Positions 5,901-29,886 are shown, numbered from the stretch's first letter. The stretch is 64,000 bases of DNA from Verrucomicrobiia bacterium (GCA_030038175.1 JASHPN010000372.1:2169-66168), one strand, 5' to 3'. Made by a program: numbers and translations. The notes: a model not told the origin generated them from the letters alone.

Positions 5901-5904
5901 CCTT

Positions 5905-6573: not shown

Positions 6574-6674
6574 TCGAAAAGAGAATTTGACTCGATATTA
6601 AAGTGAAGTTGCCCGACTCTGTGCCGATGGCAGAGAACTTGCGCATGAACGAGCGAAGGCCCGGAACGCCGGCA

Positions 6675-7094: not shown

Positions 7095-7281
7095 CGTTGC
7101 CCATGTGTGGGTCGTAGGCGTATGCCATTATTGCAGAAATTTCAAGTATGAGCGCGTTTGGACCCAATATTTCTATTCCGGAGCTCATTTTAAAACTGGT
7201 GGGAGAGAATCACAACGTGGCTGTGGGGCAGGGCACCTTGTGATTGCGCCCCAGTTGTAGTAGAAATCACCCTGGTGAAGG

Positions 7282-7650
7282 CTAAAGCCAACGTAGCGCG
7301 TAGTAGTTACAGATGAGGTGGATGGTGTTGTCGGCGACAATAAACAGCCAGGACGACATCCACACCGGCAAGTTGGTGTAGCCGGTTTCAGAGCATTCCT
7401 TCCACGGGTGGTAGCCCGGACCAAGCCAGTTCTTCGCCCAGACCACGTAACGCGCAAGTCGGAAACGATCCACAAAAAAATGGCTGACCAAAATCGCCAG
7501 CACCGCCCAGACCGAGCCGATGAGCAGGAAGGGCAGGCTGTAAACCACCACGTGGCACAGCGCCGGCCAGGTGCGCCGGGCCTTGTTTTGTGCCATCCAA
7601 TCGCTTTGGGTCAGGTAATCGCCGACAAGGTGCAGGATGAGTTGTAACAT
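7282..7650 (-). CDS. Small integral membrane protein, DUF3307-like
   Basis: 122 aa. N-terminal HLVGDYLTQSDWMA motif typical of DUF3307 and several hydrophobic helices. Starts 4 nt after the NHL gene stop, so it is the last gene of the porin-cytochrome operon. Confidence 0.6.
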   Translation of the reverse strand: MLQLILHLVGDYLTQSDWMAQNKARRTWPALCHVVVYSLPFLLIGSVWAVLAILVSHFFVDRFRLARYVVWAKNWLGPGYHPWKECSETGYTNLPVWMSSWLFIVADNTIHLICNYYALRWL

Positions 7651-7654
7651 AGGT

Positions 7655-12762: not shown

Positions 12763-12763
12763 A

Positions 12764-16750: not shown

Positions 16751-18859
16751 TCACTTTATCTCCATCTCCCAAATGCCGCTCCAATGGTCCGGCGGCCGGG
16801 CCGAAAGTTCGGCGCAGCGGGCGGCCAGCGCGCTGCCGGGGCCGTCGGAAAATTCCCGGGCGAGCTTTTCAAATTCCGTCCGCGCTTCGGCAAATTTTCC
16901 GGAAAAATATATTTCGTACGCCGCCGGGTAACGCGCGCAAAGCTCCGCGTAGTTTGCCGGGGTACAGGGATTTTCGTATTCGAACAATTCCACCGGTTCG
17001 GTTTTGCCCTTGACGATCACGCGGTCCACCAGCCGCCGGTTGCCTGGCACGTTGAATTGAGCCAGGGCTTCGCGCGTCACCAGCATCCGCACCCCGTAAA
17101 ATTTCGTGAGCAACTCCACGCGCGCCGCCTCGTTCACCGTGTCGCCGACCAGGCCGTAATCGAGCCGCAATGCCGAACCTTTGTTGCCGATCAGCACCGG
17201 GCCGCGGTGCAATGCGACGCCGTAGCCGAACAACTTCCGAACCTCGGCCGGCAGGGTTGCGCGCAAATCCTCCATCGCGCGGATGAGATTCATCGCCGCG
17301 CGTCCGGCGCGATCGGCGGCGTCCGGCTGCTCTTGCGGCGCGCCCCAGTAGCTTAAAAACTGGTCGCCGAGAAAATGCTCCAGATTCCCCTCCTCGCTCA
17401 TGACGGCGCTGGTCTGCGCGTCAAAGACGCGGTTGAGCAAATCGAACATGCCTTGCGGCCCGAGCATTTCGGCCAGGGGCGTCGAATTCCGCAAGTCCGT
17501 CAGCAGCACAGTCACTTCCGCCCGGCGCGGTTGCATCGAGCCGGGATCCGCCAGCACCTCATCCAGCACGCGGGGTGAGAAATAAAGTCCCATGGTGTGC
17601 CGCAGCTTCATCCGCTCCAGCCGTTCGGTGACGAAATCATATCCCAGCCCGCCCACGCCGGCGAAGGCCAGAACCAGCAGAGGACTGACCACCGGGAAAA
17701 TCGCGTTCACGTGATTGAAGAAAAATTCCGCGGCATAGAAAATACCCGCGCCGGCCACCAATATCACCAGCAGCCGTCGGACCGGCGCCCGGATGAAGAG
17801 ACATAACACAGCTGCGAACAGGCCGGTCAGCACGATGATGGCGCCGCTGGCGAACGGCGGCGTTTCGCCGATAAATTCGCCATGCAGCGCCGCATTGAGG
17901 ACGTTCAGGTGAATTTCCGGCCCGGCCATTTCCTGGCCGAACGGCGTGCGATGAAAGTCCTGGAAAATATTGGCCGTCGGACCAACCAGAATGAGCTTGC
18001 CCGCAAAAAACTTTCCACTGCCATAAGTGCGTTCCCAAAGTTCCGGCGTCAACACATCACCCAATGGGATCACCCGCCACGTTCCAGGCGGGCCGGTGAA
18101 ACGGATTCGTTGCGGTTTCCCGACGGCCGGCATTTTTTTCCCCGCGCCGAATTTCTCCAGCGCCCGGGCGGCGAAAGATTCGATAACAGCGCCGGGCGCG
18201 GCGTTCACCGCATCACCCAACTCATGGTTGGCGACGCAGAAATGCGCGTGGCGGAATACATCATCGCCGTCCGGCCAGAGGTTGACAAAGCCAACGCGCG
18301 AATCCAGGGCGGCAGGGCGGTCGGGCGTATCGGGAATCAAATCTGCGGTTGGCGCGGCGAATTGTGCCGGTTGACCGCGGTCCGTTTCTTCGAGATTAAA
18401 CACACCGCCGATGACAAGGTGGCTTGAATATTCGTTCAGGGCGAGGCGCAATTCGCGATCGCCGTTCGCTTCGCTGGCGAAAACCAAATCAATCGCAATC
18501 GTTTTGGCGCCGGCATCGGAAAGTTGCCGGATGAGCCGCGCCCAGACGATTCGCGACCATGGGAATTGGCCCCGCAGCGCGGCGAGTACCGGGTCATCGG
18601 CTGCCTCGGCGGGGGAAATGGCGTCGCTGCAGCTGGGCCGGTCAATTCCAATCAGAACGAGGTTGGTGTCGGCCGGCGTGAAACGCCCGTGGCGCGCAAA
18701 AAAATCCTGGACGAAATTTTCCGCGGCGTTTAACGGCGCGGCCAATGGCGGCGGGCCGCGAAAATCCACTGCCAGCACGGCGAGCGTGACCAATACGCAG
18801 AAGCAGCCGAGGACGGCCGTGCGGCGCGGCGGGCGGCGTCTATTGAATTGTTCGGGCAT
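16751..18859 (-). CDS. CHASE2-domain class III adenylate/guanylate cyclase (paralog 1)
   Basis: 702 aa. N-terminal TM, ~300-aa extracytoplasmic CHASE2-like region (VLIGIDRPS, IAIDLVFASE, WPDGDDVFRH), three TM helices. Cyclase core VTVLLTDLRNSTPLAE...FLGDQFLSYWGAP...YGLVGDTVNEAARVE. Helical, TPR-like tail. Confidence 0.85.
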   Translation of the reverse strand: MPEQFNRRRPPRRTAVLGCFCVLVTLAVLAVDFRGPPPLAAPLNAAENFVQDFFARHGRFTPADTNLVLIGIDRPSCSDAISPAEAADDPVLAALRGQFPWSRIVWARLIRQLSDAGAKTIAIDLVFASEANGDRELRLALNEYSSHLVIGGVFNLEETDRGQPAQFAAPTADLIPDTPDRPAALDSRVGFVNLWPDGDDVFRHAHFCVANHELGDAVNAAPGAVIESFAARALEKFGAGKKMPAVGKPQRIRFTGPPGTWRVIPLGDVLTPELWERTYGSGKFFAGKLILVGPTANIFQDFHRTPFGQEMAGPEIHLNVLNAALHGEFIGETPPFASGAIIVLTGLFAAVLCLFIRAPVRRLLVILVAGAGIFYAAEFFFNHVNAIFPVVSPLLVLAFAGVGGLGYDFVTERLERMKLRHTMGLYFSPRVLDEVLADPGSMQPRRAEVTVLLTDLRNSTPLAEMLGPQGMFDLLNRVFDAQTSAVMSEEGNLEHFLGDQFLSYWGAPQEQPDAADRAGRAAMNLIRAMEDLRATLPAEVRKLFGYGVALHRGPVLIGNKGSALRLDYGLVGDTVNEAARVELLTKFYGVRMLVTREALAQFNVPGNRRLVDRVIVKGKTEPVELFEYENPCTPANYAELCARYPAAYEIYFSGKFAEARTEFEKLAREFSDGPGSALAARCAELSARPPDHWSGIWEMEIK

Positions 18860-18926: not shown

Positions 18927-19778
18927 ATGAAAACAATACTTCTTATCATTGGCCTGGCGTTGCTTTGCCAGTTTTCCGGCAGAACGGCCCCGCTCACCGA
19001 GAGCACGTTCACCGAAATTATCAACGATGTTCACACCGTCTCCCTGTCCGGAAATTCCGCCCCCGCCAGGGTGAACGAGATCCTCCAGTCGCCCGAACGC
19101 GTCCGAACCGGCCCGCAATCGCGCGCGGAGTTGGTCGCACCGGACCGGACGATTACGCGCGTCGGAGCGGACACGATTTTTTCCTTCGCCGACGCTGGAC
19201 GCACGTTAAACCTGGAACAAGGCAACGTGCTGTTTCACCCTCCGAAAGGAATGGGCGGCGGCACTATCCAATCCGCCGGCGCGGCGGCCGCCGTGCTGGG
19301 CACGACGATCATCGTATCTGCCACCGCAAACGGGGGATTCAAGGTGATTTTGCTCGAAGGCAAGGGCACGGTGACCCTGCCAAACGGAACATCCGCCACA
19401 TTGAACGCCGGCCAGATTGTGTTCGTGCTGCCGGGCGGAACGTTGAGTCCTGTGCTGAACATTAATTTAGGCAAACTTGTTGATGGTTCGCTGTTGGTCA
19501 ATGGTTTTCCGGATAAGCTTTCCTCGCTGGCGCTCATCGAGACCGCCATTCGCGCGCAAAACAAGTTGTTGAAATCGGGCAGGGCGGTGGACACCGGCCG
19601 GCCGGTGGACGCTTTTTTATATCCGCCGGGCAACGGCCTGGACACGATTGACCACGGCACTTACCAAACGGCCGCTCCTTCGCCGGTCACGCCACAGATT
19701 TCCCCAAAGGGGCCCACCGTCTCCGGCGCTCCAGGTGGACGTGGTATTGCGCCGCTTTCCCCGGGTGCGCCAGGTTAA
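18927..19778 (+). CDS. Secreted FecR-domain protein
   Basis: 283 aa with a signal peptide (MKTILLIIGLALLCQFSG). FecR-like beta-rich core (RVRTGPQSRAELVAPDRTITRVGADTIFSF...LEQGNVLF...GTTIIVSA...ILLEGKGTVTLPNG). Divergent from cyclase 1. Confidence 0.75.
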   Translation: MKTILLIIGLALLCQFSGRTAPLTESTFTEIINDVHTVSLSGNSAPARVNEILQSPERVRTGPQSRAELVAPDRTITRVGADTIFSFADAGRTLNLEQGNVLFHPPKGMGGGTIQSAGAAAAVLGTTIIVSATANGGFKVILLEGKGTVTLPNGTSATLNAGQIVFVLPGGTLSPVLNINLGKLVDGSLLVNGFPDKLSSLALIETAIRAQNKLLKSGRAVDTGRPVDAFLYPPGNGLDTIDHGTYQTAAPSPVTPQISPKGPTVSGAPGGRGIAPLSPGAPG

Positions 19779-19789
19779 AAATCGATTCC

Positions 19790-20815
19790 ATGCGAACCCT
19801 TATCATGTTCCTGACCGCCGGGGCAGTTGCTTTCATATTACCCGCCGCGCGCGCCCAGTTGCCCAATGCCAGCCAGCAGATACAATCGTTCGAGCAGCAC
19901 AATCAGCTTGAACAATCGGCGCAATCGCTCCTGGTTACCAATATTCCGTCGCTTTACGAATCCGAGACCAGCGACGTCGGGCCGCAGTCCGTGGTCCAAA
20001 TCAAACCGCGCCGGACCTGGATCGAAGCTTACGGCGACGAGCAGTATTTTTACACTGACAATATGTTTCTCGCCGACCACAACAAGCAGGGCGCCGACGT
20101 GCTGGTGAGCACCGTACAGGCGGCGCTGGCGCCGACGCCGTTTCAAATCGGCAACGGCCAGCTCGCGCCGCGCGTTGGTTACCAGCAGCAATGGTTCAAT
20201 TACGACCTTGCCCGTTCGGACACGGCGGAGGTCTTTAATCTCAACACCGGCACATTTCAAACGGTGGGGTTGGATACGTTCGACTTCAACGCTTCCACCG
20301 TTTTTGGCGATTTGACCTGGCGGCAGAACAACTGGGTGTTGACCCTCGGAACGGATTTTCGCCGGTTGCTGGATTCCGGCAGTTACGCCGAATTTTACCG
20401 CGAATACGTTCCGCGCTGGTCCATCATGCGCGAATTGCCACTGACAAAAACCACCGGCCTTTCCCTGGGCTACGAAGGCGACTATCGCGCGACCGAAACC
20501 CAAAATCCGCCAACCGGCTTCGGCGAAAATTACAACGATCGAACCGATCACAGCCTCGTCATCGTCGGCAGTTGGCAGTTGTGCCGTTACGCGGTGCTTC
20601 AGCCGTTTTACCAATTTGAATACTCGCACTACACGGTTGTCAGGCGCGACGATTTCCTGAATTCCTTCGGTTTAACCCTGTATTGCCCCCTCACAAAAAA
20701 TGTTGCCTTGCGCGCCTTCGTCGGTTACGACGATTTGAATACCGACGGATTCTTCGCCCAGGATTACCAGCAACTCAACGCCGGCGGCGGATTGAATCTA
20801 TTTATCCGGTTTTAG
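19790..20815 (+). CDS. Putative outer-membrane beta-barrel protein
   Basis: 341 aa with a signal peptide (FLTAGAVAFILPAARAQ). Alternating beta-strand pattern rich in Y/G/N. C-terminal ...GGGLNLFIRF with a terminal Phe. Lies 11 nt after the FecR gene. Confidence 0.55.
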   Translation: MRTLIMFLTAGAVAFILPAARAQLPNASQQIQSFEQHNQLEQSAQSLLVTNIPSLYESETSDVGPQSVVQIKPRRTWIEAYGDEQYFYTDNMFLADHNKQGADVLVSTVQAALAPTPFQIGNGQLAPRVGYQQQWFNYDLARSDTAEVFNLNTGTFQTVGLDTFDFNASTVFGDLTWRQNNWVLTLGTDFRRLLDSGSYAEFYREYVPRWSIMRELPLTKTTGLSLGYEGDYRATETQNPPTGFGENYNDRTDHSLVIVGSWQLCRYAVLQPFYQFEYSHYTVVRRDDFLNSFGLTLYCPLTKNVALRAFVGYDDLNTDGFFAQDYQQLNAGGGLNLFIRF

Positions 20816-21059: not shown

Positions 21060-22625
21060 CTACCGCTCCGCAACCTGCGGGTGATGGTAGATGTGGCATT
21101 CGGCGCAGGAACTGGCCACGCCGCCGCGCGGGCTGTGGCATTGCGCGCAGGTTTCTTTCGGCGGCAAAAGGATGTCCGCGTTGTCCTGGCTGTGGACCGC
21201 GTCGTGGCATTGTGCGCAGGCGATGTTCGCGTGCGCGGCGTGGCTGAAGTTTGCCTCCGGCAGCCAGCGCTCGCGCATCACCGGCGGGGTGACTTCCGGC
21301 AAGCCGGCGCCCGGCGCTTTTACCTCATGGCAATACGCACAGCCGGGAAATACCGCCCGCGTCGCGCCACTCAACGTTCCGATTTGCGCCGCCGGCCCGA
21401 ACGTCGCGGTGCTGAAGAAAACGCGCTGTTCCAATTCCTCGCCGCTGCCGAACTGCGACCGCAGGCCGGCCAGCTTTTGCCGGACGAAATCATTTTCATC
21501 GGCCACGTTCTCCGCCGCGGCGAGTTTTGTGTATTGCTCCGGCAGGCTGTGCAAAAACGCCGATACAAAATCCGCGCTGCCGTGCGGGAGCCGCAACTCC
21601 GGCGTCTGCGGATCGAATTGCAGCGAATGGCAGATGCGGCAATCTTTCTCAAACGAAACCGGTTGCATGTAAGCGCCCGCGGCGTCCGGCTGATGGCAAA
21701 AGGCGCAATCCAATTTTTTACCGCCGGGCAGCGTCGGAATCGTCGCGCCCGTGAGGTGTAATTGGTGGTTGAATTTCAGCGTGTCCGGATTGCGCCATTT
21801 TTCCGTGATGAAAGCGAATTGCGGATGGTCCGTGGCAAAATGATGGACGAGCGGAACGGTCCCCGACCCCGCCATTTTTGCCGCGTCGCCGTGGCAGAAA
21901 TCGCAATTCGCGTCGGTCGTTGCCGCTATTTTGATTCCCTGGTGCTCGGCATGGCAAAACGCGCAGGAAATTTGCGGCGCACCCGGTTGATGAAAATTTT
22001 GCCCGGCGTGGCATTTCAGGCACGCGGCATCCAGGACCGTCGGCATCGCCCGTTGGGCCGTCACGAGTTTTTTGAACCCGAGGATTCCCGGGTCGGCGCG
22101 CAACGCGGCGGTGACGATTCCGTTGGGCCCGGAATTGCCGGCCGCGTGGCAGGCGTTGCAATTTGGCGCCAGGTGATTCGCCGCCGCCAGCGCCATAAAG
22201 GCCGCCCCGGAGTGCGCCAGTGAAAGCCGGCCGGGATTGATAAATTTGTCGCGCCACGGCGGATTGCCCAGTAAAACCAAAAGCGCGGCGCAGGAAATCG
22301 CGACGACCGCAAGGGTTATTCTTTGGCGAACCAGACGCAGCGTCGGCGTCGGCGAACATTTTGCAATCGGGCGGCAGCAGCTTCCGTCCGGCAACGGACC
22401 GGATTCACACGCGCCACCGGAGCGGGTACAGCGCCACCGGCCTTTCGTCTCGCCCGGTTTTGTCTCAAGCGCCGGCCGGCATTCCGCCGTGGCGCGGCAG
22501 CGGCCTCTTTCATCCGGACCGAGCCGGCACGGATTGCCTTCGCCGGCATGGCCGCAGATCCAGTTTTGATTCGGCCGCGCATAATTTTGCCCTTCAAAAT
22601 CCGGTGCTGGCGGCCGCTCGCTCAT
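21060..22625 (-). CDS. Membrane-anchored decahaem c-type cytochrome with Cys-rich N-terminal domain
   Basis: Ten CxxCH motifs: CNACH, CLKCH, CAFCH, CDFCH, CAFCH, CRICH, CAYCH, CAQCH, CAQCH, CAECH. The preferred start is the ATG at 22625 (MSERPP...), which forms an ATGA overlap with the upstream stop; the track start at 22718 would overlap the upstream gene by 97 nt. Nine Cys precede a single TM (ITLAVVAISCAALLVLLG). Confidence 0.88.
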   Translation of the reverse strand: MSERPPAPDFEGQNYARPNQNWICGHAGEGNPCRLGPDERGRCRATAECRPALETKPGETKGRWRCTRSGGACESGPLPDGSCCRPIAKCSPTPTLRLVRQRITLAVVAISCAALLVLLGNPPWRDKFINPGRLSLAHSGAAFMALAAANHLAPNCNACHAAGNSGPNGIVTAALRADPGILGFKKLVTAQRAMPTVLDAACLKCHAGQNFHQPGAPQISCAFCHAEHQGIKIAATTDANCDFCHGDAAKMAGSGTVPLVHHFATDHPQFAFITEKWRNPDTLKFNHQLHLTGATIPTLPGGKKLDCAFCHQPDAAGAYMQPVSFEKDCRICHSLQFDPQTPELRLPHGSADFVSAFLHSLPEQYTKLAAAENVADENDFVRQKLAGLRSQFGSGEELEQRVFFSTATFGPAAQIGTLSGATRAVFPGCAYCHEVKAPGAGLPEVTPPVMRERWLPEANFSHAAHANIACAQCHDAVHSQDNADILLPPKETCAQCHSPRGGVASSCAECHIYHHPQVAER

Positions 22626-23440
22626 CGGGCGCCTCCCGAAAATCCAAAAACCAGGGCGATGTGCAACGCCGTGAAAATGAGCAGGCCGTAAGTGAGCGGG
22701 ATGTGGACGAACAGCCACAACTTGAGCGCAAGCTGGAGCGCGCGATGATAGTCGAGGTCGTCCTTTTGCCGGACGAGGGCGGCGACCTTTTCAAGCGTGG
22801 CGCGTTCGCCGTCGCTGCCGGTGCGCCGCAAATCGTCCAGGGTGGCGATCAGCGCGTTGAGCGGACGCCGCGATTCCGCCAGATGCAGCCAGGAATTCTT
22901 TGGTCCGTCGAAAAATCGGGCGAGCCGGCGCGCGTAAAATTCCGCGATGACAGGCGATTGCGCCTCCCCTCCGAGCGCCAGTTTTTCCGCCTCGGCCCGG
23001 AGCGCGTGGCGCAACGCCGGGATTTTTTCGTAAATCACCTCGCCGCCGCGCGTCGCGAGCCGGCCGGGGAGGATGCGGCTGAAAATCAAACCGACCACGC
23101 CGCTGCCGGCCACAAGCACGAACAGCCACGCCAGCGTGACTTCAAACCATCCGCGTGGCAGGCGAAAATTCAGGTGAATCAAAAACAGCAACACGGTGAA
23201 AAAGCCGAGGTAGATGTGAATTTGCAGCCACGTTTCAGAATTTCCCAGCGGCAAAAATGGCAGCTTTTTCCGCGCGTTATACAGTGCCAGCAGCAACATC
23301 GCCGCGAGCAGGATCCAGCCCGTGAGAAACGCGTAATCCGGAAGCGCGCGGTTGAATTTCGCGTGCAGCCACAACGTCGCCGCCGTTGCGACCAGCAACG
23401 CGAACAGGCCGGAGAAAAATTGCCGCCGGAAGCGTTTCAT
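22622..23440 (-). CDS. 5-TM membrane protein, candidate di-haem b-type transmembrane electron carrier
   Basis: Preferred start is the ATG at 23440 (MKRFRRQFFSGLF...), ATGA-overlapping the upstream stop. About five hydrophobic helices. Two of them carry H-x13-H: HIYLGFFTVLLFLIH and HIPLTYGLLIFTALH. A ~110-aa helical soluble insert lies between TM4 and TM5. I do not recognise a family. Confidence 0.6.
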   Translation of the reverse strand: MKRFRRQFFSGLFALLVATAATLWLHAKFNRALPDYAFLTGWILLAAMLLLALYNARKKLPFLPLGNSETWLQIHIYLGFFTVLLFLIHLNFRLPRGWFEVTLAWLFVLVAGSGVVGLIFSRILPGRLATRGGEVIYEKIPALRHALRAEAEKLALGGEAQSPVIAEFYARRLARFFDGPKNSWLHLAESRRPLNALIATLDDLRRTGSDGERATLEKVAALVRQKDDLDYHRALQLALKLWLFVHIPLTYGLLIFTALHIALVFGFSGGAR

Positions 23441-25161
23441 TTTTGCAGCCAGCGCGTGAGCGCGTCCAGGTTGTTCAAGTTGGTCCGCGCGAGCGCGCCG
23501 TGCGGGCAGGCGCGCTGGCAGGCCGGACCGCTCCAATTTTCCACGCACAAATCGCATTTCGTCGCCTTCACAATCGGCTTCGATTCCTTGTCCACCAGGA
23601 TCTCGCCATCACCGTCGCGGATTTCCACCATCCGGATGGCATCGTAGGGACAATTGTTGGCGCACGACTTGCACCCGATGCACGTCGCGGGATTGACGAC
23701 TACCTGGCCGCCGAACGACTCGCGATGGATCGCGCCGGTCGGGCAGCCAATCATGCAGACCGGGTCGGCGCAGTGCATGCAGGCATTCGCAATCATCAGC
23801 CGCCCGGCGCTCGGGCCGTGCCGCAGGAAACGTGGATTGTTGTCGTGCGTCGAGGCGCAGGCACGAACGCAATCGTCACAGCGTGTGCAGCGATCAAGGT
23901 CAATCACCATCGTGGCCGTGCCGTTGAAAAAGCGGTTCTCGGTCAGAAATTCCAGGACTTCCGCGCCGATTTTTTCGCGCACCGCGGTTCCCGGCGCGCT
24001 CGAATCCAAATCTTCCGCCGCCGTTTCGGCCAAAGGCGGCAGCTCGTTTTTTGGCAGCGACGGCAAAACGATTTCCTCCATCACGCGCGTCGGCACGATG
24101 AGCAAATGCGTGTAACCGATGGCGCGGAGGGAAAATTGAAAATTCACCGGTGCTTCTTTGCATCGCCAGTTGTGGGCAATTTCGTTCAGGCCGAAAATCC
24201 GGCCGGCGCCGAGGTAATTCAGCGTGCGCTCACCGCCCCCGGTTTTCTGGCTCACGCGCGCGAAGCCGGCCCGCAACAGCACGATGCCGTTCGGGTAATC
24301 GCCTTCCGTGAGGATGGCGGGTTCCTTTTCCGGACGGACGCCGCCGGCTTGCACGAGACGTTTGTATTCGCCGGACCAGTCATAGTCGCCAAACGTCGCA
24401 AACTCGACGGCCTCGGCAACGCGATCGAGTTGCTCCTTGCCCAAATTTTTGAATATCGGCGTCGCGCGGAGATACGATGCCAGCGCGCGTTCGCGGTAAA
24501 TGCGGTTGATGTGCGTACGCAACGCGTCGTCGTTCTTCATCAAATCCCGCAGGCCCTGCCAGCGGATTTCGAGCAATTCCGCGTCGTCGCTGTCGGCGAA
24601 AATGGTCGAAGTGCGCGGCATCCGGCTCAGCGCGGCAATCTCGCCAAAAAAATCGCCCGCCGTCATCTGTTCCGTGCGGTGCTGGTTCAAAACGCGCGGC
24701 AAATCTTGAAGAAAGACGTGAACTTCGTTTTCATCCTGTCGCGAGCCGACGCCGGCATCTTGTTTCAACTGGGCGGGGGAGAAGCTTTCCGGCGGACGTG
24801 AACCGTTCCAAAACTGGGCAAGCGTGCGCCAAATTCCCTTTTTGCCGGGCGAATGCCGGCCAAGCAGCGACGGTGGCAAATCCGGTTGCAACACGACGCT
24901 CGCGGCGCCGTTCAAAATCAGAAATGCCGACGTGCCGTAATCGCCCTGGCGCACAATGATTTCACCTTTGCGGAACCGGAGCAGGCGCGTGTCGTGGCGC
25001 AGAATTCCGCGGAGCGGTATGCGTTTGGGAAACCTCTCCGCGCTCATGTCGCAAAACGGCGGGATGGCGAGCAGCCGGTCCGCGTCGGCGTCCGTCATTT
25101 CCGGGTCGAAGGCGGCGTCCCAGCGCTGCGGTCGTTCGAGGATGGTCGGGGCGGCGGACAT
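23437..25161 (-). CDS. Cyclic-nucleotide-binding domain protein fused to a DmsB/NrfC-like 4x[4Fe-4S] ferredoxin module
   Basis: 574 aa. cNMP-binding-type segments (LRFRKGEIIVRQGDYGTSAFLILNG; GDFFGEIAALSRMPRTSTI; LGAGRIFGLNEIA). C-terminal Cys clusters CTRCDDCVRAC, CMHCADPVCMIGCP, CIGCKSCANNCP, CDLCVENWSGPACQRACP. No twin-arginine signal at the N-terminus. Confidence 0.85.
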   Translation of the reverse strand: MSAAPTILERPQRWDAAFDPEMTDADADRLLAIPPFCDMSAERFPKRIPLRGILRHDTRLLRFRKGEIIVRQGDYGTSAFLILNGAASVVLQPDLPPSLLGRHSPGKKGIWRTLAQFWNGSRPPESFSPAQLKQDAGVGSRQDENEVHVFLQDLPRVLNQHRTEQMTAGDFFGEIAALSRMPRTSTIFADSDDAELLEIRWQGLRDLMKNDDALRTHINRIYRERALASYLRATPIFKNLGKEQLDRVAEAVEFATFGDYDWSGEYKRLVQAGGVRPEKEPAILTEGDYPNGIVLLRAGFARVSQKTGGGERTLNYLGAGRIFGLNEIAHNWRCKEAPVNFQFSLRAIGYTHLLIVPTRVMEEIVLPSLPKNELPPLAETAAEDLDSSAPGTAVREKIGAEVLEFLTENRFFNGTATMVIDLDRCTRCDDCVRACASTHDNNPRFLRHGPSAGRLMIANACMHCADPVCMIGCPTGAIHRESFGGQVVVNPATCIGCKSCANNCPYDAIRMVEIRDGDGEILVDKESKPIVKATKCDLCVENWSGPACQRACPHGALARTNLNNLDALTRWLQK

Positions 25162-25163
25162 TT

Positions 25164-26471
25164 TCAGGCGTCAAGGACCAAATCGCTTTTCGGCCGGCAA
25201 ATGCAGGTGAGGCACGAGCCGGCGTCCGGTTCGGCGTCCGGGCGCTTCAGATAATTCACCTCGCCGGACTTTATGGCGACGACGCACGTGCCGCAGCCGC
25301 CGGCGCAGCAGCCGGAATCAATTTTTATTCCTTCCGCCGCCGCAAACTCCAGCAAATTGCCGGCGGAGGGCTCCCAGCGGACCGTTTTGTTTGAGCGCGA
25401 AAACGTGACGAGGATTTTTGCCAGATGCGCAGTTTCGTCGAGCGTCGGCACGGCGGCTTTTTTCTTGACCGTCGCCGGCCCAAACGCTTCGAAATGGACG
25501 GCTGAGTCCGGCACGCCCCAGGATTCAAGGCCGTCGGTGATGCCTTTCATAAACGCGCCGGGGCCGCAGAGATAAAAATCAAAATTGTTCGACGGCAGCA
25601 ATTCCTTGAACAACTCAACGCTGACGCGGCCTTCGTGTTGGTAATCGCGGTCCTTCACATCGTCCGGCCCGGGTTTGCTGTAGCAAACGTGCAGCCGGAT
25701 GTTCTCGTTCTTCGCCGCAAGCTTTTCCAATTCAGCCTTGTGGATGTGCTCGCGCCAATTCCGGGCGCCCAGGAAAAACCACACCTCGCGTTTCGAGCCG
25801 CCGGCGACGATCGCGTTGGCCATGCTCAACATTGGCGTAATGCCGACTCCGCCGGCGATGAGCACTATGGGGTTTGTTTTCGTCAGGTCGAGGAAGAATT
25901 GGCCGGCGGGCGCTTTGACATTGAGGATGTCACCCTCCTTGACCACGTCGCAAAAATAACTCGAGGCCGCGCCCGGCGGCAAATCCGGCCGGTCCGGCGG
26001 CGCTTTTTCCTTCTTAATCGTGACGCGGTAATAATCCTTCTGGTGCGGACAATCGGACAGCGAATAGCAACGGACCAGCGGCTTGTCGCGGCCCGGCAGG
26101 TCGAGCTGGAAGGTCAGGTATTGCCCCGGTTTGAACGCCGGCAGCGCCCGCCCATCGTGCGGCTTTAAGTAAAACGCACAAACGTCATCACACTCGATGA
26201 CTTTTTTTGCGACGGCGAATTTGCGGAGGCCGTTCCAGCCCGCTTGCGCCGGCCCGGCTTCGCGGCAACGCAGGCGGACCTCGTCCACTTGCGCGCGGAG
26301 CTTTTCCCGCGCCAGCCGCGCTTGCACGCGCTCGGCGTTCACCCGCAGCCCGGACCGGATTGCTTCCAAAATCAGCCAGGCCGCGAGCGCGGCGAGCAGC
26401 AGCAGTCCGGCGGCAAAGCTCAGGTCGCCGCCGGCGAGGGCATGCAAGGACGCGATTAAGGTTGCAATCAT
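25164..26471 (-). CDS. Membrane-anchored ferredoxin-NAD(P) reductase-type flavoprotein with C-terminal plant-type 2Fe-2S domain
   Basis: 435 aa. N-terminal TM (FAAGLLLLAALAAWLIL). FAD motif RCYSLSD. NAD(P) motif LIAGGVGITPMLSM. 2Fe-2S pattern C-x4-C-x2-C...C (GCCAGGCGTCVV...SCLTCICRP). Its stop is 2 nt from the next start. Confidence 0.88.
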   Translation of the reverse strand: MIATLIASLHALAGGDLSFAAGLLLLAALAAWLILEAIRSGLRVNAERVQARLAREKLRAQVDEVRLRCREAGPAQAGWNGLRKFAVAKKVIECDDVCAFYLKPHDGRALPAFKPGQYLTFQLDLPGRDKPLVRCYSLSDCPHQKDYYRVTIKKEKAPPDRPDLPPGAASSYFCDVVKEGDILNVKAPAGQFFLDLTKTNPIVLIAGGVGITPMLSMANAIVAGGSKREVWFFLGARNWREHIHKAELEKLAAKNENIRLHVCYSKPGPDDVKDRDYQHEGRVSVELFKELLPSNNFDFYLCGPGAFMKGITDGLESWGVPDSAVHFEAFGPATVKKKAAVPTLDETAHLAKILVTFSRSNKTVRWEPSAGNLLEFAAAEGIKIDSGCCAGGCGTCVVAIKSGEVNYLKRPDAEPDAGSCLTCICRPKSDLVLDA

Positions 26472-26500
26472 GCCGCCACTCCATTAACGAATTTATCGTC

Positions 26501-27715
26501 GTGAGTAAAACAATTTATGGTTCCCTGACCGCCGGCCTGATTTTCTGCCTGGCGGCGCGCGCGGCGGACACGCCGGGGAAATTTCTCGGCGCCAATTCCT
26601 GCGCCAGCTCCAGTTGTCACGGCGGCGGTGGCGCGAATCAGAACCAGTTCCTCATCTGGTCGCTCAAAGATTTTCACTCGCAGCGGCCGTTCGCCACGCT
26701 GGCGACCGCGCGCGCCAAACAAATCGCCGTTGCGGCCGGCATCATGGATCCGATCACGGACGAACGCTGCACGGCCTGTCACACACCGTTGCGGGACGTG
26801 CCGGAGGATTTGCGCGGCAGCGATTTTAGGATTAGCGAAGGTGTTTCCTGCGAAAGCTGTCATGGCCCGGCGGGAAGTTGGATTCGGTCACATACGCGGA
26901 CCGATTATACGCGCGCCGAGCGCACGGCGGCCGGAATGCGCGCCCTGGAAAATCTTTACGTCCGCGCCAACGCGTGCGTCGCGTGCCACCAGGTCGTCGC
27001 CGAACCATTGCTGAAGGCCGGCCACCCGGAATTGATTTTTGAATTGGACGGCCAGAGCGTGGCCGAACCGAAACATTGGACCGTGGCCAGAAACGGCATC
27101 GGCCCCCAGGCGTGGTTCGTCGGCCAGGCGGTCGCATTGCGGGAAACAAGCTGGGAACTGGCACGCGAAAAATCACCGTCGGAAAATGAAATGAACCGTT
27201 GGGGCGGCCTGGTTTGGCTGTTGATCCGCGCGGACAAAGTTGACCCTGATTTGCCGAAGCCGCCGGACGTCACATTCCGTCCAAACCCGGAAAACTTTGA
27301 ACTGGTCCAAAAATGGAGCGACGGTCTGGCCCGCGCCGCGGCGGAGATTTCATGGACGAACACGATGACCCAAACCGCCCTGCTGGCGCTGTCTGGCACG
27401 GCGGCTGATTTCAGGGAGGCGGTCCCGCAAGCAGTCAAGGCTCGCCGCGCCGAACGCCTGGTGCTGGCGCTGGACCGGCTCGTCATGTCGCTGCCGCAAA
27501 TCCGGCGGAGCGCGCCGCTTAATGGCGCGCTGGACAGGTTGTTCAGCGACGCACAGTCGCTGCCGGATTTCAAACCGGCTGATTTTGCCGCGCATCTTGA
27601 AGAGTTTCAGAAACAGGTACAATTGGCGGCGGTGGACAACCGACCAGCCCGCACCACGCATTTGCCATGGTGTCAAACCGCTGTCCGGCAGGATCGGAAA
27701 ACTATTTTTCAGTAA
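26501..27715 (+). CDS. Secreted multihaem (about four haems) c-type cytochrome with C-terminal non-haem domain
   Basis: The track ORF starts at 26207, but that stretch overlaps the divergent reductase gene. The in-frame GTG at 26501 gives a signal peptide, (V/M)SKTIYGSLTAGLIFCLAARAADTPG. Haem motifs CTACH, CESCH, CVACH plus an atypical CASSSCH (CX4CH). The exact start is uncertain. Confidence 0.72.
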   Translation: MSKTIYGSLTAGLIFCLAARAADTPGKFLGANSCASSSCHGGGGANQNQFLIWSLKDFHSQRPFATLATARAKQIAVAAGIMDPITDERCTACHTPLRDVPEDLRGSDFRISEGVSCESCHGPAGSWIRSHTRTDYTRAERTAAGMRALENLYVRANACVACHQVVAEPLLKAGHPELIFELDGQSVAEPKHWTVARNGIGPQAWFVGQAVALRETSWELAREKSPSENEMNRWGGLVWLLIRADKVDPDLPKPPDVTFRPNPENFELVQKWSDGLARAAAEISWTNTMTQTALLALSGTAADFREAVPQAVKARRAERLVLALDRLVMSLPQIRRSAPLNGALDRLFSDAQSLPDFKPADFAAHLEEFQKQVQLAAVDNRPARTTHLPWCQTAVRQDRKTIFQ

Positions 27716-29711
27716 GGTCAATTTCACCCATCCACTCGGCATTGGGCGGGTGAATGGCGAATTGCCGAATTTGCTCCAGATAAAATTTGCTGGGACCGTC
27801 GTTGGGCCGGAGTTCAAGAACTTTCGTGAAAGCCGCTCGCGCTTCGTCAAATTCCTTGTGCATAAATCTGCTCAACCCGGTGATGAAGGTTTTCCTCCAT
27901 TCGGCGGTGGCCTGTTCCTCCTCCGGCAGGCCGACCATCTCATGCACCTCGACCACCTGGTTAAACCCCTTAAACTTGAAATAGCCGGCCAACCGGGAAA
28001 CGATCTTGCCCTCGCTGGATTTCTGGATCTCGCGCGTGGCCAGAATGTTTGTGCCAAGTTGTTTGTTCAAGCCTTCCAGGCGGGAAGCCAGATTGACGCT
28101 TTCGCCGATTGCGGTGTAGTCAAAATGGGTTGAGCTTCCGATATTGCCCACGCACACCGCGCCGGTATGCAGACCCACGCGAGTATATAACGGAAGATGC
28201 CAACTGGCCTCTTCAAATCTTATCAACGCCCGGTTTAGCAGGATGGCAGCCTTGCAGGCGCGATACTGGTGGTCGGGCTGCTCTTGCGGGGCGTTCCAGA
28301 TCGCAAAAATCGCATCGCCAATCAGGTTCATCACCGTTCCGCGCGTTTCATGCACGCAACCGATGGCCGTTTCGTAGTAGGCATTCATCAGCTTGACGAG
28401 ATCCTCGGTAATCATACGTTCGGATATTTTTGAAAAGCCCGCGATATCGCTGAACAGGATGCTGACGGTTTTCAATTCGGCGCCCGGTTTCAATAAGTCA
28501 GGTTGCCTCAGGATTTGTTTCACCGACTCCGGCGAGAGATACAATGCCAATGAGGTTTCCAGCACCTGGGTCTGGACATAGGACTTGACGGAACTGAAAA
28601 GATAGGCCCAGCTCAGCCCGATCGGGATTTGGATTGCGACAATGATCATCCACGACATCCAGACATGAAATCGGTCGGCCATGATGATGGCCAGGGTCGT
28701 CACGATCACGGCGGCCGCGGCGGCCAGTCCGGTGGCCGCGACCGGACGGTAACAACTCAAGCCATAACCAAGAAGAATCCCGGCAAAAATAAAAAGCATG
28801 GTTTGCAGACCGTCGGGCAGCCGGGTCATCCAGTCCTGGCGGACAAGGTTGGCAAAGGTGAGGGCGTGGATTTCCACACCGCAAGGAAAATACCCCGTCA
28901 GCCACGTCCATGGACTGCGGAATTGCTCTTTTTCCTGGCCGCTATAACCGGCCACCTCGCCGGAACCGACGAAAACCACCTTGTCTTTAAGTGAAATATC
29001 CGCGGGCAATTGTTTTCCGGAAATGACGTCGCAATACGAAATAGCCGGAAACGGCGCGCTGGAATAATAATTCAGCCAACGCTCGCGCAGGCGGGTCTCC
29101 GGCCGTTGCGTGACCTCGGCTCCGGAAATTTCCGCGGCCTTCCAGGCCAGGCTGGGAACCTGGCCGGTGCCCGGATATTGAATGCGCGCGGCGAAATCTG
29201 TGTCCCGGTTAACCAGCGCCAATCCCCAGCCCGCCGCCACATTTCGAAATAGATCAATCGGGGGCCAGACAGTCGCGCTGTTGTATCCCAGGTGAGTGTC
29301 CTGGTAAAACTGCGCGCCTAATACCACGCGGCCTTGATTTTGAATCGCCCGGGCAAATTCCTGGTCGGCGGCGGTTATCGGGCCGGAATCGTCAATGAAC
29401 AGAATGTCAAAAACAATCAATTTGACTCCGGCCTGCTTGAGCCGGTTCACCAGTTGGGCGTGCAGCCCCCGGTCGAAGGACGCCGGATCCTGATTCAGTT
29501 GGCGATATGACTTCTCGTCCAGATAAATAATCACCACGTCATTGATTTTGGCTTCGGGGCGGAAGAGGAAGGGAAGGTCAAAACTCCAATCGCGCAGTCC
29601 CTTGCCGAAGGGAAACCAGAATAAGGCCAGCCCGGTGAGCGTCGCCAGCAACGCCCCCACGCCGCCGCCAAACCACGGCTGATGCAAACGTTTTTTGAAG
29701 CCGGCGTCCAC
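27702..29711 (-). CDS. CHASE2-domain class III adenylate/guanylate cyclase (paralog 2)
   Basis: 669 aa with the same architecture as 16751-18859: N-terminal TM, CHASE2-like region (VVIIYLDEKSY, IVFDILFIDDSG), three TM helices. Cyclase core VSILFSDIAGFSKISE...LIGDAIFAIWNAP...YTAIGESVNLASRLE. TPR-like tail (ARAAFTKVLELRPNDGPSKFY). Confidence 0.85.
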   Translation of the reverse strand: MDAGFKKRLHQPWFGGGVGALLATLTGLALFWFPFGKGLRDWSFDLPFLFRPEAKINDVVIIYLDEKSYRQLNQDPASFDRGLHAQLVNRLKQAGVKLIVFDILFIDDSGPITAADQEFARAIQNQGRVVLGAQFYQDTHLGYNSATVWPPIDLFRNVAAGWGLALVNRDTDFAARIQYPGTGQVPSLAWKAAEISGAEVTQRPETRLRERWLNYYSSAPFPAISYCDVISGKQLPADISLKDKVVFVGSGEVAGYSGQEKEQFRSPWTWLTGYFPCGVEIHALTFANLVRQDWMTRLPDGLQTMLFIFAGILLGYGLSCYRPVAATGLAAAAAVIVTTLAIIMADRFHVWMSWMIIVAIQIPIGLSWAYLFSSVKSYVQTQVLETSLALYLSPESVKQILRQPDLLKPGAELKTVSILFSDIAGFSKISERMITEDLVKLMNAYYETAIGCVHETRGTVMNLIGDAIFAIWNAPQEQPDHQYRACKAAILLNRALIRFEEASWHLPLYTRVGLHTGAVCVGNIGSSTHFDYTAIGESVNLASRLEGLNKQLGTNILATREIQKSSEGKIVSRLAGYFKFKGFNQVVEVHEMVGLPEEEQATAEWRKTFITGLSRFMHKEFDEARAAFTKVLELRPNDGPSKFYLEQIRQFAIHPPNAEWMGEIDLTEK

Positions 29712-29886
29712 CGGGCGAAGTTACGGCATCAGACACGCGGTGTGAAGCAAAACCCGTTTGCTGAGGCTGGGAGCCGCTGGCCGGCCCCGAACCATTGTTC
29801 TTGCTTTAGTTTCAAAATTACATATAGGTGTTCCCGTAATTCCCTTGCGGCCAACCCGGCTATATCCAGGCGTATGGCTTCCGCCC

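Follow-up and report, generated by a model that had tools for sequence, protein, structure and literature searches.

A PtdE-family protein joining cyclic nucleotide-binding domains to a four-cluster ferredoxin in a verrucomicrobial operon: a candidate for second-messenger control of electron export

A 64,000-nucleotide stretch of DNA from a Verrucomicrobiia bacterium, referred to below as the window, encodes a protein in which tandem cyclic nucleotide-binding (CNB) domains are fused to a ferredoxin domain. Judged by its sequence the protein is a member of the PtdE family, which has been named in a single preprint, and the operon that carries its gene matches PtdC, PtdE, PtdF and PtdG. We propose, with moderate confidence, that these proteins constitute a quinone-independent module for the export of electrons from NAD(P)H, in which the iron-sulfur clusters of PtdE would serve as a wire and cyclic nucleotides would gate it through the CNB domains. 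The fusion had been described in an earlier note on this DNA and is confirmed by a domain search, in which one minus-strand reading frame matches both the cNMP_binding family and Fer4 families of Pfam (Table 1).

Table 1. Features of the ptd-like operon and its flanks, with positions counted from the first nucleotide of the window.
Feature	Position	Strand	Description and basis
PtdE-like gene	23437..25161	-	single ORF, 574 aa, ATG to TGA; tandem CNB and four-cluster ferredoxin
CNB domain 1 (CNB1)	24463..25044	-	residues ~40-233, B/C helices included; Pfam, AF2 secondary structure, Foldseek
Insert splitting CNB1	24712..24885	-	~55 aa, residues ~93-150; conserved in alignments
Phosphate-binding cassette of CNB1 (PBC1)	24604..24648	-	F172-G-E174-IAALSRMP-R183-T184-ST; read from sequence
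CNB domain 2 (CNB2)	24058..24462	-	residues ~234-368; Pfam stretch, AF2 secondary structure, conservation
Cassette of CNB2 (PBC2)	24121..24195	-	F323-G324-LN-E327...L345-R346-A347, atypical; sequence, alignment
Ferredoxin domain	23467..23913	-	residues 417-565, four Cys groups, predicted 4 x [4Fe-4S]; sequence, alignment
PtdC-like gene	25164..26471	-	stop 2 nt before PtdE start; Pfam, TM prediction
PtdF-like gene	22622..23440	-	272 aa; ATG overlaps PtdE stop (ATGA)
PtdG-like gene	21060..22625	-	decaheme cytochrome c; ATG overlaps PtdF stop (ATGA)
CHASE2 class III nucleotide cyclase	16751..18859	-	702 aa; Pfam CHASE2 1.3e-36, Guanylate_cyc 1.2e-10
CHASE2 class III nucleotide cyclase with TPR tail	27702..29711	-	669 aa; Pfam
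c554-like tetraheme cytochrome, PtdD-like	26501..27715	+	signal peptide; Pfam Cytochrome_C554 1e-9; divergent
Secreted FecR-domain protein	18927..19778	+	Pfam FecR 5.3e-9; divergent from 16751-18859 cyclase

A public protein collection contains an entry identical to the PtdE-like protein as well as over 100 full-length homologues of 80-85% identity, so the reading frame is a real gene, and proteins of this family are very widespread in bacteria. The cNMP_binding match (E 5.5e-24; 84.4 bits against a gathering cut-off of 27.5) falls in three stretches, and residues 456-557 match several 4Fe-4S dicluster families of Pfam. As neither a transmembrane helix nor a Tat or Sec signal peptide is predicted, we take PtdE to be cytoplasmic. 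No HTH family is found in the protein by Pfam, the C-terminal half being occupied by the ferredoxin domain, and a reading of PtdE as a CRP/FNR transcription factor was rejected because the C-terminal HTH DNA-binding domain is absent. The AF2 model is mediocre (pLDDT 64.5, with a poor ferredoxin half and values below 50 around PBC1) and provides no inter-domain geometry to back an allosteric mechanism.

Foldseek places the N-terminal half of PtdE with the tandem CNB-A/B domains of PKA-R and PKG, which rank first among the structural matches to the model (E ~1e-15 over ~350 aligned columns) although the identity is only 13-16% and the TM-scores are low (0.2-0.4). All of the CNB signatures quoted in the earlier note can be found, but the domains that they mark are two, consecutive as in PKA-R and PKG, and not three: RKGEIIVRQGD and FLILNG lie in the beta2-beta3 region of CNB1, FFGEIAAL belongs to PBC1 and RIFGLNEIA to PBC2. 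The motif G66-E-x-I-x-x-x-G73-D-x-G76...G85 of CNB1 is canonical and conserved in alignments. PBC1 shares the canonical F-G-E...R-T/A form with PKA-R and PKG, and the spacing of its Glu and Arg is the nine residues found in the PKA, PKG and MloK1 cassettes. In an alignment of 117 PtdE sequences (the window protein and 116 cluster representatives), G173 is kept in 115, E174 in 98 and R183 in 101. PBC2 retains G324 (114/117), E327 (96/117), R346 (80/117) and A347 (100/117), but must be considered atypical because E327 and R346 are ~18-19 residues apart, a longer loop than the canonical one. This 19-residue loop and the ~55-aa insert in CNB1 distinguish PtdE from PKA-R and PKG; the insert has a low pLDDT and contains the invariant residues L100-G101-R102, Q116, W118 and P124-E125. 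Among the representatives, 86 of the 116 keep both Glu and Arg of PBC1 and 30 (26%) lack Glu or Arg there, while the pair is found in at least one CNB domain in 101 (87%) and is absent from both in only 15. The earlier note had allowed for domains devoid of ligand-contact residues, with a structural role only; these residues are present, so the domains do not fit that description. It is reasonable to infer that PtdE would be gated post-translationally by cAMP or cGMP, as the earlier note suggested, and a control of electron flow through PtdE by these nucleotides is plausible. On this proposal the ligand would release or engage an effector, as it does in PKA-R and PKG, except that their effector is a kinase whereas that of PtdE would be the Fe-S ferredoxin domain of the same chain.

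The four Cys groups lie within the C-terminal ~150 aa (CX2CX2CX3C, CX2CX4CX3CP, CX2CX2CX3CP and CX2CX8CX3CP), and each of the 16 Cys is kept in 114-116 of the 117 aligned sequences. Their order and spacing are shared with the Fer4_11 four-cluster ferredoxins (DmsB, NrfC, HybA, HycB and HydN). The best sequence matches in the PDB are HycB3 and HycB4 of the hydrogen-dependent CO2 reductase (E 9e-17 and 8e-16), an ArrB-like protein, formate hydrogenlyase subunit 2 and NrfC, and the best NCBIfam matches are DmsB, HydN, DsrO, HycB and NrfC. This Cys layout and these matches are the grounds on which PtdE could be taken for a DmsB/NrfC-type subunit of a molybdoenzyme or Nrf complex to which regulatory domains have been added. 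We regard that as highly improbable, as every equivalog score is far under its cut-off (DmsB 63.7 vs 214.1; NrfC 39.9 vs 377.6; HybA 47.8 vs 263; DsrO 56 vs 200) and neither the operon nor any of 80 related loci has a molybdopterin, NrfA or NrfD-like gene. Subunits of this type are usually Tat-exported and partnered with a catalytic subunit and an NrfD/DmsC-type anchor, whereas PtdE is cytoplasmic, lacks the Tat signal, carries 400 aa of sensor domains and has neither a catalytic molybdo- or Ni-Fe partner nor an NrfD-type anchor. The DmsB/NrfC assignment of the earlier note thus holds for the four-cluster layout, which is also that of HycB, but as a statement about a molybdoenzyme or Nrf subunit it is contradicted already by gene context.

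The PtdE gene is the second in a translationally coupled four-gene operon of order C-E-F-G, the junctions of which consist of one 2-nt spacer (C/E) and two ATGA overlaps (E/F and F/G). PtdC has an N-terminal TM helix, a FAD/NAD(P)-binding FNR module and a C-terminal plant-type 2Fe-2S domain (Pfam NAD_binding_1 3.9e-21, Fer2 1.1e-11 and FAD_binding_6). It is similar to the reductase module of flavohemoglobin. PtdF, of which a database copy (P0395) has the same length, has five predicted TM helices and a cytoplasmic helical insert, and its TM helices contain two H-x13-H pairs (H75/H89 and H246/H260) that are invariant in sets of 74, 13 and 50 sequences. Matches to di-heme cytochrome b families are below threshold (DUF4405 9/13, Ni_hydr_CYTB 6/13, Ferric_reduct 3/13); there is no significant Pfam or PDB sequence match, and the AF2 model (pLDDT 84.5) finds no solved fold by Foldseek at better than E 0.36, so that it is the His spacing from which heme b binding is deduced and PtdF is best described as a putative di-heme membrane protein. 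Elsewhere PtdE and PtdF occur naturally as one fused protein (P0137, 4e-52; P0165, 1e-41), in keeping with an N-terminus of PtdF that is predicted to be cytoplasmic. In PtdG a single TM helix separates a Cys-rich N-terminus on the cytoplasmic side from a heme domain in the periplasm; the protein matches Pfam cytochrome families and has ten CXXCH motifs, as do 65/65 homologues.

The ptdABCDEFG cluster was named in bioRxiv 10.1101/2023.11.21.568154, where its function is given as "completely unknown", nitrogen-cycle roles are raised, and the hosts are marine Alphaproteobacteria UBA11136, Gammaproteobacteria, Nitrospirales and Planctomycetes from saline sources. PtdE is described there as a cNMP-binding domain protein with 4Fe-4S, and its neighbours as the FAD/NAD(P) oxidoreductase PtdC, the transmembrane PtdF and the periplasmic decaheme PtdG, together with a pentaheme PtdA, a porin PtdB and a tetraheme PtdD between C and E. 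The window resembles this cluster in joining both domain types in one protein and in the PtdC, PtdF and PtdG neighbours. It differs in that the window protein has four Cys groups where the preprint counts two clusters, in that the PtdD-like tetraheme gene is divergent and C and E are 2 nt apart, and in that the operon is flanked by CHASE2 cyclases; PtdA and PtdB have no match in the window by tblastn with queries from loci L078 and L071. The closest relatives of the window operon include peat, soil and freshwater MAGs, in contrast to the saline sources of the named cluster. For comparison we used locus L078, whose ORFs show the penta-, tetra- and decaheme A-G order given in the preprint; that order is what ties it to the named cluster. 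The window PtdE is 53% identical to its PtdE over residues 8-574, and the C, F and G proteins show 49%, 47% and 30% identity respectively (blastp 3e-139, 7e-77 and 2e-36). The window operon is a Verrucomicrobiota (Limisphaerales/Pedosphaera-like) variant of ptd C/E/F/G.

Synteny of the C-E-F-G core is kept across Verrucomicrobiota, Planctomycetota and Alphaproteobacteria, in essentially all of 80 genome loci, and the metagenome loci that were retrieved through PtdF have a CNB-ferredoxin gene upstream in 38/38 cases. The association with cyclases is looser. The two adenylate cyclases that the earlier note placed around the operon are indeed class III CHASE2 cyclases, one on either side, but they do not adjoin it: the tetraheme gene separates the operon from the 27702-29711 cyclase, and the FecR-like gene and an uncharacterised gene (together 18927-20815, +) separate it from the 16751-18859 cyclase. 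The catalytic Asp, Asn and Arg are present in the latter and the catalytic residues likewise in the former, but the adenine-specifying Lys is replaced by His (16751-18859) or Asn (27702-29711), and the product, cAMP or cGMP, is therefore uncertain. The 16751-18859 cyclase has a syntenic orthologue in 12/12 loci with at least 75% PtdE identity, and the FecR gene is co-conserved with it in relatives; the FecR protein is possibly a sensory partner of the cyclase. For the 27702-29711 cyclase no syntenic upstream orthologue was found even in close relatives, and its place beside the operon is peculiar to this genome. The tetraheme cytochrome has three CXXCH motifs and one CX4CH, and by blastp matches PtdD of L078 at 1e-9 and a syntenic gene of locus L025 at 1e-111. 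A 131-aa ORF at 26468-26863 on the minus strand was discarded as an antisense artefact of this gene. A likely outer-membrane barrel gene (12764-15121), distinct from PtdB, recurs beside the module in other Verrucomicrobia.

Among 38 loci with full flanks a cyclase lies within 8 kb in 18, comprising 12/12 close relatives but only 6/26 others, and is absent from 20, which include all Alphaproteobacteria and most Planctomycetota; nearby cyclases are clade-specific. A co-occurrence of fusion and cyclase holds, then, among close relatives, and while the fusion is widespread and often without a cyclase close by, its redox partners are always present. Separate lineages have cyclases of three architectures beside the module (CHASE2, Tll0287-like and FHA-linked). 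In two loci (L049 and L050) the ptdG stop is immediately followed by the start of the cyclase ORF, in the same orientation, and FHA domains have been added to PtdE or PtdC in other lineages. Such varied cyclases and FHA additions indicate that the complex is a recurrent target of signalling. Together with the intact cassettes they make a built-in second-messenger input the best reading of the CNB domains.

In NADPH oxidases, ferric reductases and MsrQ-Fre, electrons pass from cytoplasmic NAD(P)H through a flavin and two stacked bis-His hemes b to an acceptor outside, the His pairs being ~13 residues apart on two helices. PtdF has a similar His-pair spacing, but five helices are predicted for it and it does not significantly match the Ferric_reduct family or any solved fold. 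The ptd system differs further in being split into subunits, in a 2Fe-2S and a four-cluster wire that would sit between flavin and hemes, and in a multiheme cytochrome that would be the acceptor rather than O2 or MsrP. In NOX5 and DUOX, fused Ca2+ EF-hands act as a post-translational switch, and this fused second-messenger sensor comes closest to the cNMP control proposed here. MtrCAB and Pcc-type conduits receive their electrons from the quinone pool via proteins of the CymA, ImcH or CbcL type, whereas the ptd inner-membrane module would take them straight from NAD(P)H and would carry a nucleotide sensor. What these conduits and the verrucomicrobial 'EET3/EET4' clusters (bioRxiv 10.64898/2026.05.27.727921) have in common with the present locus is periplasmic or extracellular multihemes with a likely outer-membrane barrel nearby.

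We have observed the domain architecture, the conservation of ligand-contact and cluster residues, the operon coupling, the synteny and the fusions, and from these we infer a model for the cofactors, the direction of electron flow, the binding of cNMP and the gating. In this model, membrane-anchored PtdC would oxidise NAD(P)H and pass electrons through FAD to its 2Fe-2S cluster, and from there to the four [4Fe-4S] clusters of PtdE, which would hand them to two bis-His hemes b of PtdF for transfer across the membrane. The periplasmic heme domain of PtdG would collect the electrons and pass them on to further cytochromes, namely the c554-like tetraheme, and possibly to the outer-membrane barrel with a large multiheme protein. 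The CNB domains share their arrangement with the PKA regulatory subunit and with PKG. Their ligand is most likely cAMP or cGMP from class III cyclases, which here would be CHASE2-type envelope sensors, and its binding would turn the wire on or off by allostery, for example through an altered docking of PtdE to PtdC or PtdF.

The same wire could operate with CNB domains that are structural, serve in docking or bind another small molecule, and there would then be no second-messenger gating. Heme, 2-oxoglutarate and c-di-GMP are ligands of other CAP-fold proteins, and the elongated PBC2, the conserved insert, the loss of Glu or Arg from PBC1 in about a quarter of the representatives, the many invariant residues beyond the canonical CNB fold (R13-W14-D15, G101-R102 and W201 in the alignment) and the lack of a nearby cyclase in most loci outside one clade all point in this direction. 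CAP-fold proteins with other ligands usually lack the Glu/Arg pair, however, and PBC1 has the canonical sequence and spacing and is strongly conserved, most representatives retain the pair in one domain or the other, and the three cyclase architectures were recruited independently, twice directly after ptdG. We therefore consider an ungated wire a serious but distinctly less probable explanation.

Two other arrangements seem unlikely. Electrons from periplasmic or extracellular donors might flow inward from PtdG through PtdF and PtdE to NAD(P)+ or another cytoplasmic acceptor, or the module might supply periplasmic detoxification or repair instead of extracellular electron transfer, as MsrQ-Fre of E. 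coli does in passing electrons from NAD(P)H via heme b to a periplasmic repair enzyme, with cNMP control serving some other purpose. The sequences fix no direction, and the nitrogen-cycle proposals and the resemblance of PtdC to the flavohemoglobin module could be read in this way. Reduction of NAD(P)+ from c-type hemes is uphill, though, and would depend on energy coupling, and the module has no subunit for ion translocation or quinone binding. It co-occurs in Verrucomicrobia with a likely outer-membrane barrel and large multihemes and, where the ptd locus is canonical, with a porin and a pentaheme, which fits outward transfer. Less likely still, PtdE may be mainly a sensor, its Fe-S clusters reporting cytoplasmic redox state and altering cNMP affinity or sequestration, or passing a signal to partners, while electrons reach PtdF by another path; Fe-S clusters are sensors in FNR-type CAP-fold proteins, and the cytoplasmic Cys-rich domain of PtdG might itself accept electrons. 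Against this stand the four clusters in a DmsB/HycB layout, typical of wires and not of sensors, the absence from PtdE of an output domain such as HTH, the strict synteny and translational coupling of the sole plausible donor (PtdC) and acceptor (PtdF), and the PtdE-PtdF fusions.

If the proposed NAD(P)H export module with its cNMP-gated wire is correct, these bacteria would export reducing power, and so dissipate NAD(P)H and membrane potential, only upon a signal.

The gene at 23437-25161 translates as one 574-aa ORF on the minus strand (its plus-strand frame is closed, with no ORF), and the fusion of cNMP-binding (CNB) domains to a ferredoxin domain that the earlier note had read from the DNA is real and far beyond chance. 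The public protein collection holds an identical copy of this protein, PtdE, and more than 100 full-length homologues (573-583 aa, 80-85% identity), the organism-named entries among them being Verrucomicrobiae metagenome-assembled genomes (MAGs). Pfam places cNMP_binding in it at 5.5e-24 (84.4 bits against a cut-off of 27.5), along with several 4Fe-4S dicluster families at residues 456-557. The three CAP-type motifs quoted in the note are all present, but they mark two CNB domains rather than three. No helix-turn-helix was found in PtdE, which rules out a CRP/FNR-type transcription factor, and neither a signal peptide nor a transmembrane helix is predicted, so the protein is cytoplasmic.

Ligand binding by such domains depends on a Glu and an Arg in the phosphate-binding cassette, and both are present in the cassette of the first domain (PBC1) of the window protein. 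Across 117 aligned sequences, the window PtdE and 116 representatives of 50%-identity clusters, G173 of PBC1 is conserved in 115, E174 in 98 and R183 in 101, while each of the 16 cluster cysteines is kept in 114-116. The Glu and Arg pair occurs in PBC1 of 86 representatives, in the cassette of the second domain (PBC2) of 67, and in both in 52; only 15 of the 116 have it in neither. The loop of CNB2 between G324/E327 and R346-A347 is about twice the usual length, and a variable linker joins CNB2 to the ferredoxin domain. An AlphaFold (AF2) model from a 49-sequence alignment is mediocre (pLDDT 64.5) and poor in the ferredoxin half, and it gives no guide to an inter-domain mechanism. Foldseek is informative for the tandem-CNB half only, which resembles the tandem CNB-A/B domains of PKA regulatory subunits and PKG (E ~1e-15 over ~350 columns).

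The proposal that the C-terminal half is a DmsB/NrfC-type subunit of a molybdoenzyme or Nrf system is contradicted. Its sequence matches include HycB3/HycB4, an ArrB-like protein, formate hydrogenlyase subunit 2 and NrfC, every NCBIfam equivalog score lies far below its cut-off, and the gene context argues against the assignment: no such partners are present, and the assignment was rejected. PtdE instead stands second in a compact run of four minus-strand genes (see table). Two nucleotides separate the stop of the PtdC-like flavoprotein gene from the PtdE start, and the stops of PtdE and of the PtdF-like membrane protein gene each overlap the next start (ATGA), leading into a PtdG-like decaheme cytochrome.

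Coordinates of the ptd module, the domains of PtdE, and associated genes in the window and in related loci (L, related genome loci; P, related database proteins)
Feature	Position	Strand	Details
785-aa secreted protein	12764-15121	-	signal peptide, outer-membrane-type C-terminus (...IAVTFTY), no Pfam match
CHASE2 class III cyclase	16751-18859	-	
PtdG-like cytochrome, 521 aa	21060-22625	-	ten CXXCH motifs, single TM helix
PtdF-like membrane protein, 272 aa	22622-23440	-	
PtdC-like protein, 435 aa	25164-26471	-	N-terminal TM helix, FNR-type FAD/NAD(P) module, C-terminal plant-type 2Fe-2S domain
c554-like tetraheme cytochrome (PtdD-like)	26501-27715	+	signal peptide; divergent from operon
CHASE2 class III cyclase	27702-29711	-	
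CNB1	PtdE residues ~40-233		textbook beta2-beta3 signature KGEIIVRQGDYGTSAFLILNG
PBC1 of CNB1	F172-G-E174-IAALSRMP-R183-T184		Glu-to-Arg spacing of nine residues, canonical
Insert inside CNB1	PtdE residues ~93-150		~55 aa, conserved; invariant L100-G101-R102, Q116, W118, P124-E125
CNB2	PtdE residues ~234-368		G324, E327, R346-A347 kept
Ferredoxin domain	PtdE residues 417-565		Cys groups CX2CX2CX3C, CX2CX4CX3CP, CX2CX2CX3CP, CX2CX8CX3CP
Tll0287-like cyclase beside module	L049:12247-14250		
CHASE2 cyclase beside module	L050:12250-14367		
FHA cyclase beside module	L075:10308-11489		
FHA variants	L040:7683-9698, L071:5867-7909, L081:7873-9915		proteins P0124, P0130, P0146, P0205

Two further observations concern the ends of this operon. 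The N-terminus of PtdG before its TM helix is a Cys-rich segment of ~100 aa (window 22326-22625, -) that is probably cytoplasmic; it carries about eight conserved cysteines (C24, 33, 43, 49, 66, 73, 83, 90) and a conserved Y-x-RPNQ-x-W-x-CG motif, is found also in Planctomycetota and Alphaproteobacteria homologues, and may form a further metal or Fe-S site on the side of PtdE/PtdC. At the other end the c554-like gene starts only ~29 bp from the ptdC-like start codon, so that each promoter must sit inside the coding region of the other gene. A 131-aa ORF at 26468-26863 (-), which looks like the start of the operon and showed 'conservation' by tblastn, is antisense to the c554-like gene and was rejected as an artefact.

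The same genes have been described as a ptdABCDEFG operon from bacteria of marine oxygen-deficient zones, in which PtdA is a pentaheme, PtdB a porin, PtdC an FAD/NAD(P) oxidoreductase, PtdD a tetraheme, PtdF a transmembrane ferric-reductase-like protein and PtdG a periplasmic decaheme, and whose function, according to its authors, 'remains completely unknown' (bioRxiv 10.1101/2023.11.21.568154). A Planctomycetota locus (L078) reproduces this exact gene order, and its products are 49% (C), 53% (E), 47% (F) and 30% (G) identical to those of the window, which therefore carries a verrucomicrobial ptdC-E-F-G core. The window differs from the published cluster in that its PtdD-like tetraheme is transcribed divergently, and neither PtdA nor PtdB was found in it. 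PtdE of the window is thus a verrucomicrobial member of an uncharacterised kind that databases already annotate by domain ('Fe-S-cluster-containing dehydrogenase component/CRP-like cAMP-binding protein') and that one preprint has named. Our literature search found only that preprint for the CNB and ferredoxin fusion, and none proposing gating by cNMP. The present analysis adds the four-cluster count, the statistics of cassette conservation, the membrane partner with its H-x13-H pairs and no known fold match, the E-F fusions, the FHA variants and the independent cyclase associations.

In many Verrucomicrobia an unrelated 785-817-aa protein adjoins the module beside ptdC; the window's gene of this kind lies 6 kb from the module and adjoins that for a 1280-aa decaheme/LVIVD protein. 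Three co-oriented genes at 7655-15121 (-) encode the 785-aa protein, the 1280-aa protein (ten CXXCH motifs and LVIVD beta-propeller repeats) and an NHL-repeat protein; they could be the outer-membrane end of the ptd pathway, and possibly correspond to the 'EET4' cluster of Limisphaerales (bioRxiv 10.64898/2026.05.27.727921). The gene at 15168-16748 (+), which separates the putative outer-membrane gene from the cyclase at 16751-18859, encodes a secreted protein of 526 aa in which an HbpS-like (heme-degrading protein-like) domain occurs in tandem. Nearer the start of the window we see a Reg_prop/Y_Y_Y hybrid histidine kinase (2883-5900, +) and a step in GC content near position 8000, from ~0.56 (1-8000) to 0.60-0.63 (8000-30000).

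PtdF homologues in the database are all annotated 'hypothetical protein', with no precomputed Pfam domain. Four histidines are invariant, H75/H89 in the third predicted helix and H246/H260 in the last, each pair with a 13-residue spacing (H-x13-H) and, in the predicted topology, with one His near each membrane face. Ferric-reductase/NOX domains hold two stacked hemes b with this His spacing. Among 13 members, matches to DUF4405, Ni_hydr_CYTB and Ferric_reduct recur below the Pfam threshold, a profile search against PDB sequences returned nothing, and with a confident AlphaFold model (pLDDT 84.5, pTM 0.75; five TM helices and a cytoplasmic helical insert) the best Foldseek match is no better than E 0.36. 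For these reasons we infer heme binding by PtdF from the spacing of its histidines, and 'ferric-reductase-like' is used as an analogy and not as an established family membership; PtdF may represent an undescribed di-heme (heme-b) membrane fold. Natural PtdE-PtdF fusions occur among the representatives (P0137, 4e-52; P0165, 1e-41), and they fit a positive-inside topology with a cytoplasmic PtdF N-terminus.

The module is widespread. A word-free search of 1.84 billion cluster representatives yields 595 PtdE clusters at 50% identity (E<=1e-30), the best 150 of which are mostly full length, with identity down to ~31%, and a profile search yields 5,090 clusters at 90% identity (E<=1e-30). In one-genome-per-species data PtdE is matched in 211 species, mostly Verrucomicrobiota, the others including Planctomycetota (Ca. 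Uabimicrobium, Phycisphaerae, Tepidisphaeraceae) and Alphaproteobacteria (Hwanghaeella grinnelliae, Rhodospirillaceae). Flavoprotein, PtdE, membrane protein and decaheme are syntenic in the 80 loci kept, wherever the contig extends, and all 65 PtdG homologues have exactly ten CXXCH motifs. With PtdF as query, the CNB and ferredoxin gene lies upstream in 38/38 metagenome loci with enough upstream sequence, a scan that reaches fairly close relatives (52-83% identity) and not distant CNB-less versions.

The two cyclase genes that the earlier note had placed around the operon are confirmed by Pfam as CHASE2 class III genes, situated further out. Of 38 loci with complete flanks, 18 have a class III cyclase no more than 8 kb away, as judged by a locally built cyclase HMM. 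Sorted by PtdE identity to the window protein, the counts are 12/12 at >=75%, 1/5 at 58-75% and 5/21 at <58%, or all 12 close loci and 6 of the 26 others, so that the association is clade-specific. The neighbouring cyclase takes different forms: CHASE2 in Limisphaerales-like and Verrucomicrobiales MAGs, one with a Tll0287-like sensor in L049, and one linked to FHA in L075, a Tepidisphaeraceae MAG. The cyclase ORFs of L049 and L050 start directly 3' of the ptdG stop, on the same strand. No syntenic orthologue of the window's upstream cyclase (27702-29711) was found in relatives. Alignment to solved cyclases shows the catalytic residues (metal-binding Asp, Asn, Arg) in both window enzymes. The adenine-specifying Lys is replaced by His (16751-18859) or Asn (27702-29711), and hence we make no call between cAMP and cGMP (ATP and GTP); at the second specificity position one enzyme has Gly and the other Thr.

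Independently of the cyclases, Ca. Uabimicrobium, Hwanghaeella and several further clusters have gained FHA domains, which bind phospho-threonine; these sit on PtdE, N-terminally or between its two CNB domains, or on PtdC. PBC1 is kept in all nine FHA-bearing representatives. These fusions suggest a Ser/Thr-kinase input to the ptd complex. The complex is thus a repeated target of protein-level signalling. FecR-domain proteins adjoin both window CHASE2 cyclases: at 18927-20815 (+) a 283-aa secreted FecR protein is followed by an uncharacterised 341-aa protein, and at 29758-33345 (+) lies a 1195-aa FecR+TPR+TonB-barrel-like protein. Relatives conserve the pair at 18927-20815 along with its cyclase, a pattern that points to a sensory partnership.

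We propose tentatively, rating it a little short of an even chance, that PtdE is a second-messenger-gated redox wire, in which cAMP or cGMP at the CNB domains directly opens or closes NAD(P)H-driven transmembrane export, here wired to CHASE2 envelope-sensing cyclases. The proposal starts from the architecture, the conserved ligand-contact and cluster residues and the cytoplasmic location, together with the translational coupling, strict synteny, E-F fusions and recurrent cyclase and FHA association. Electrons would pass from NAD(P)H through FAD and the 2Fe-2S cluster of PtdC to four [4Fe-4S] clusters in PtdE, and then by way of two hemes b in PtdF to the decaheme PtdG and further cytochromes. 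Such a chain would be a quinone-independent export route, with a logic comparable to that of NOX enzymes and of E. coli MsrQ-Fre. Bound cNMP would alter the docking or geometry of the ferredoxin domain, a form of gating modelled on PKA-R, PKG and Ca2+-gated NOX5. An on/off switch at the wire would make physiological sense, since moving NAD(P)H electrons out of the cytoplasm would cost the cell reducing power and depolarise its membrane.

Other explanations have to be weighed against this. The role of the CNB domains may be structural, or their ligand may be another molecule; the atypical CNB2, the insert in CNB1 and the 26% of clusters without Glu or Arg in PBC1 speak for this, the canonical and conserved PBC1 and the repeated recruitment of cyclases against it. 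It may also be that the chain runs inward or feeds a periplasmic enzyme, or that PtdE is mainly a redox sensor.

The ptd module is abundant; it occurs in soil, peat, freshwater and marine Verrucomicrobiota, Planctomycetota and Alphaproteobacteria, and is reported also from Nitrospirales (bioRxiv 10.1101/2023.11.21.568154). Through it, multiheme cytochromes of the periplasm or the cell exterior would be fed from NAD(P)H independently of quinones, a route relevant to the ways in which uncultured bacteria get rid of reducing power or reduce acceptors outside the cell. Cultured carriers, Hwanghaeella grinnelliae and Candidatus Uabimicrobium amorphum, make the system open to direct test. If the Fe-S wire is indeed gated by the CNB domains, electron transport would be regulated in a new way, by a diffusible second messenger that targets the conduit and not transcription. 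It would be the first known post-translational control of an electron-transport chain by a cyclic nucleotide, a bacterial parallel to Ca2+-gated NOX5, and environmental PVC bacteria, proteobacteria and Nitrospirales would carry it in their thousands.
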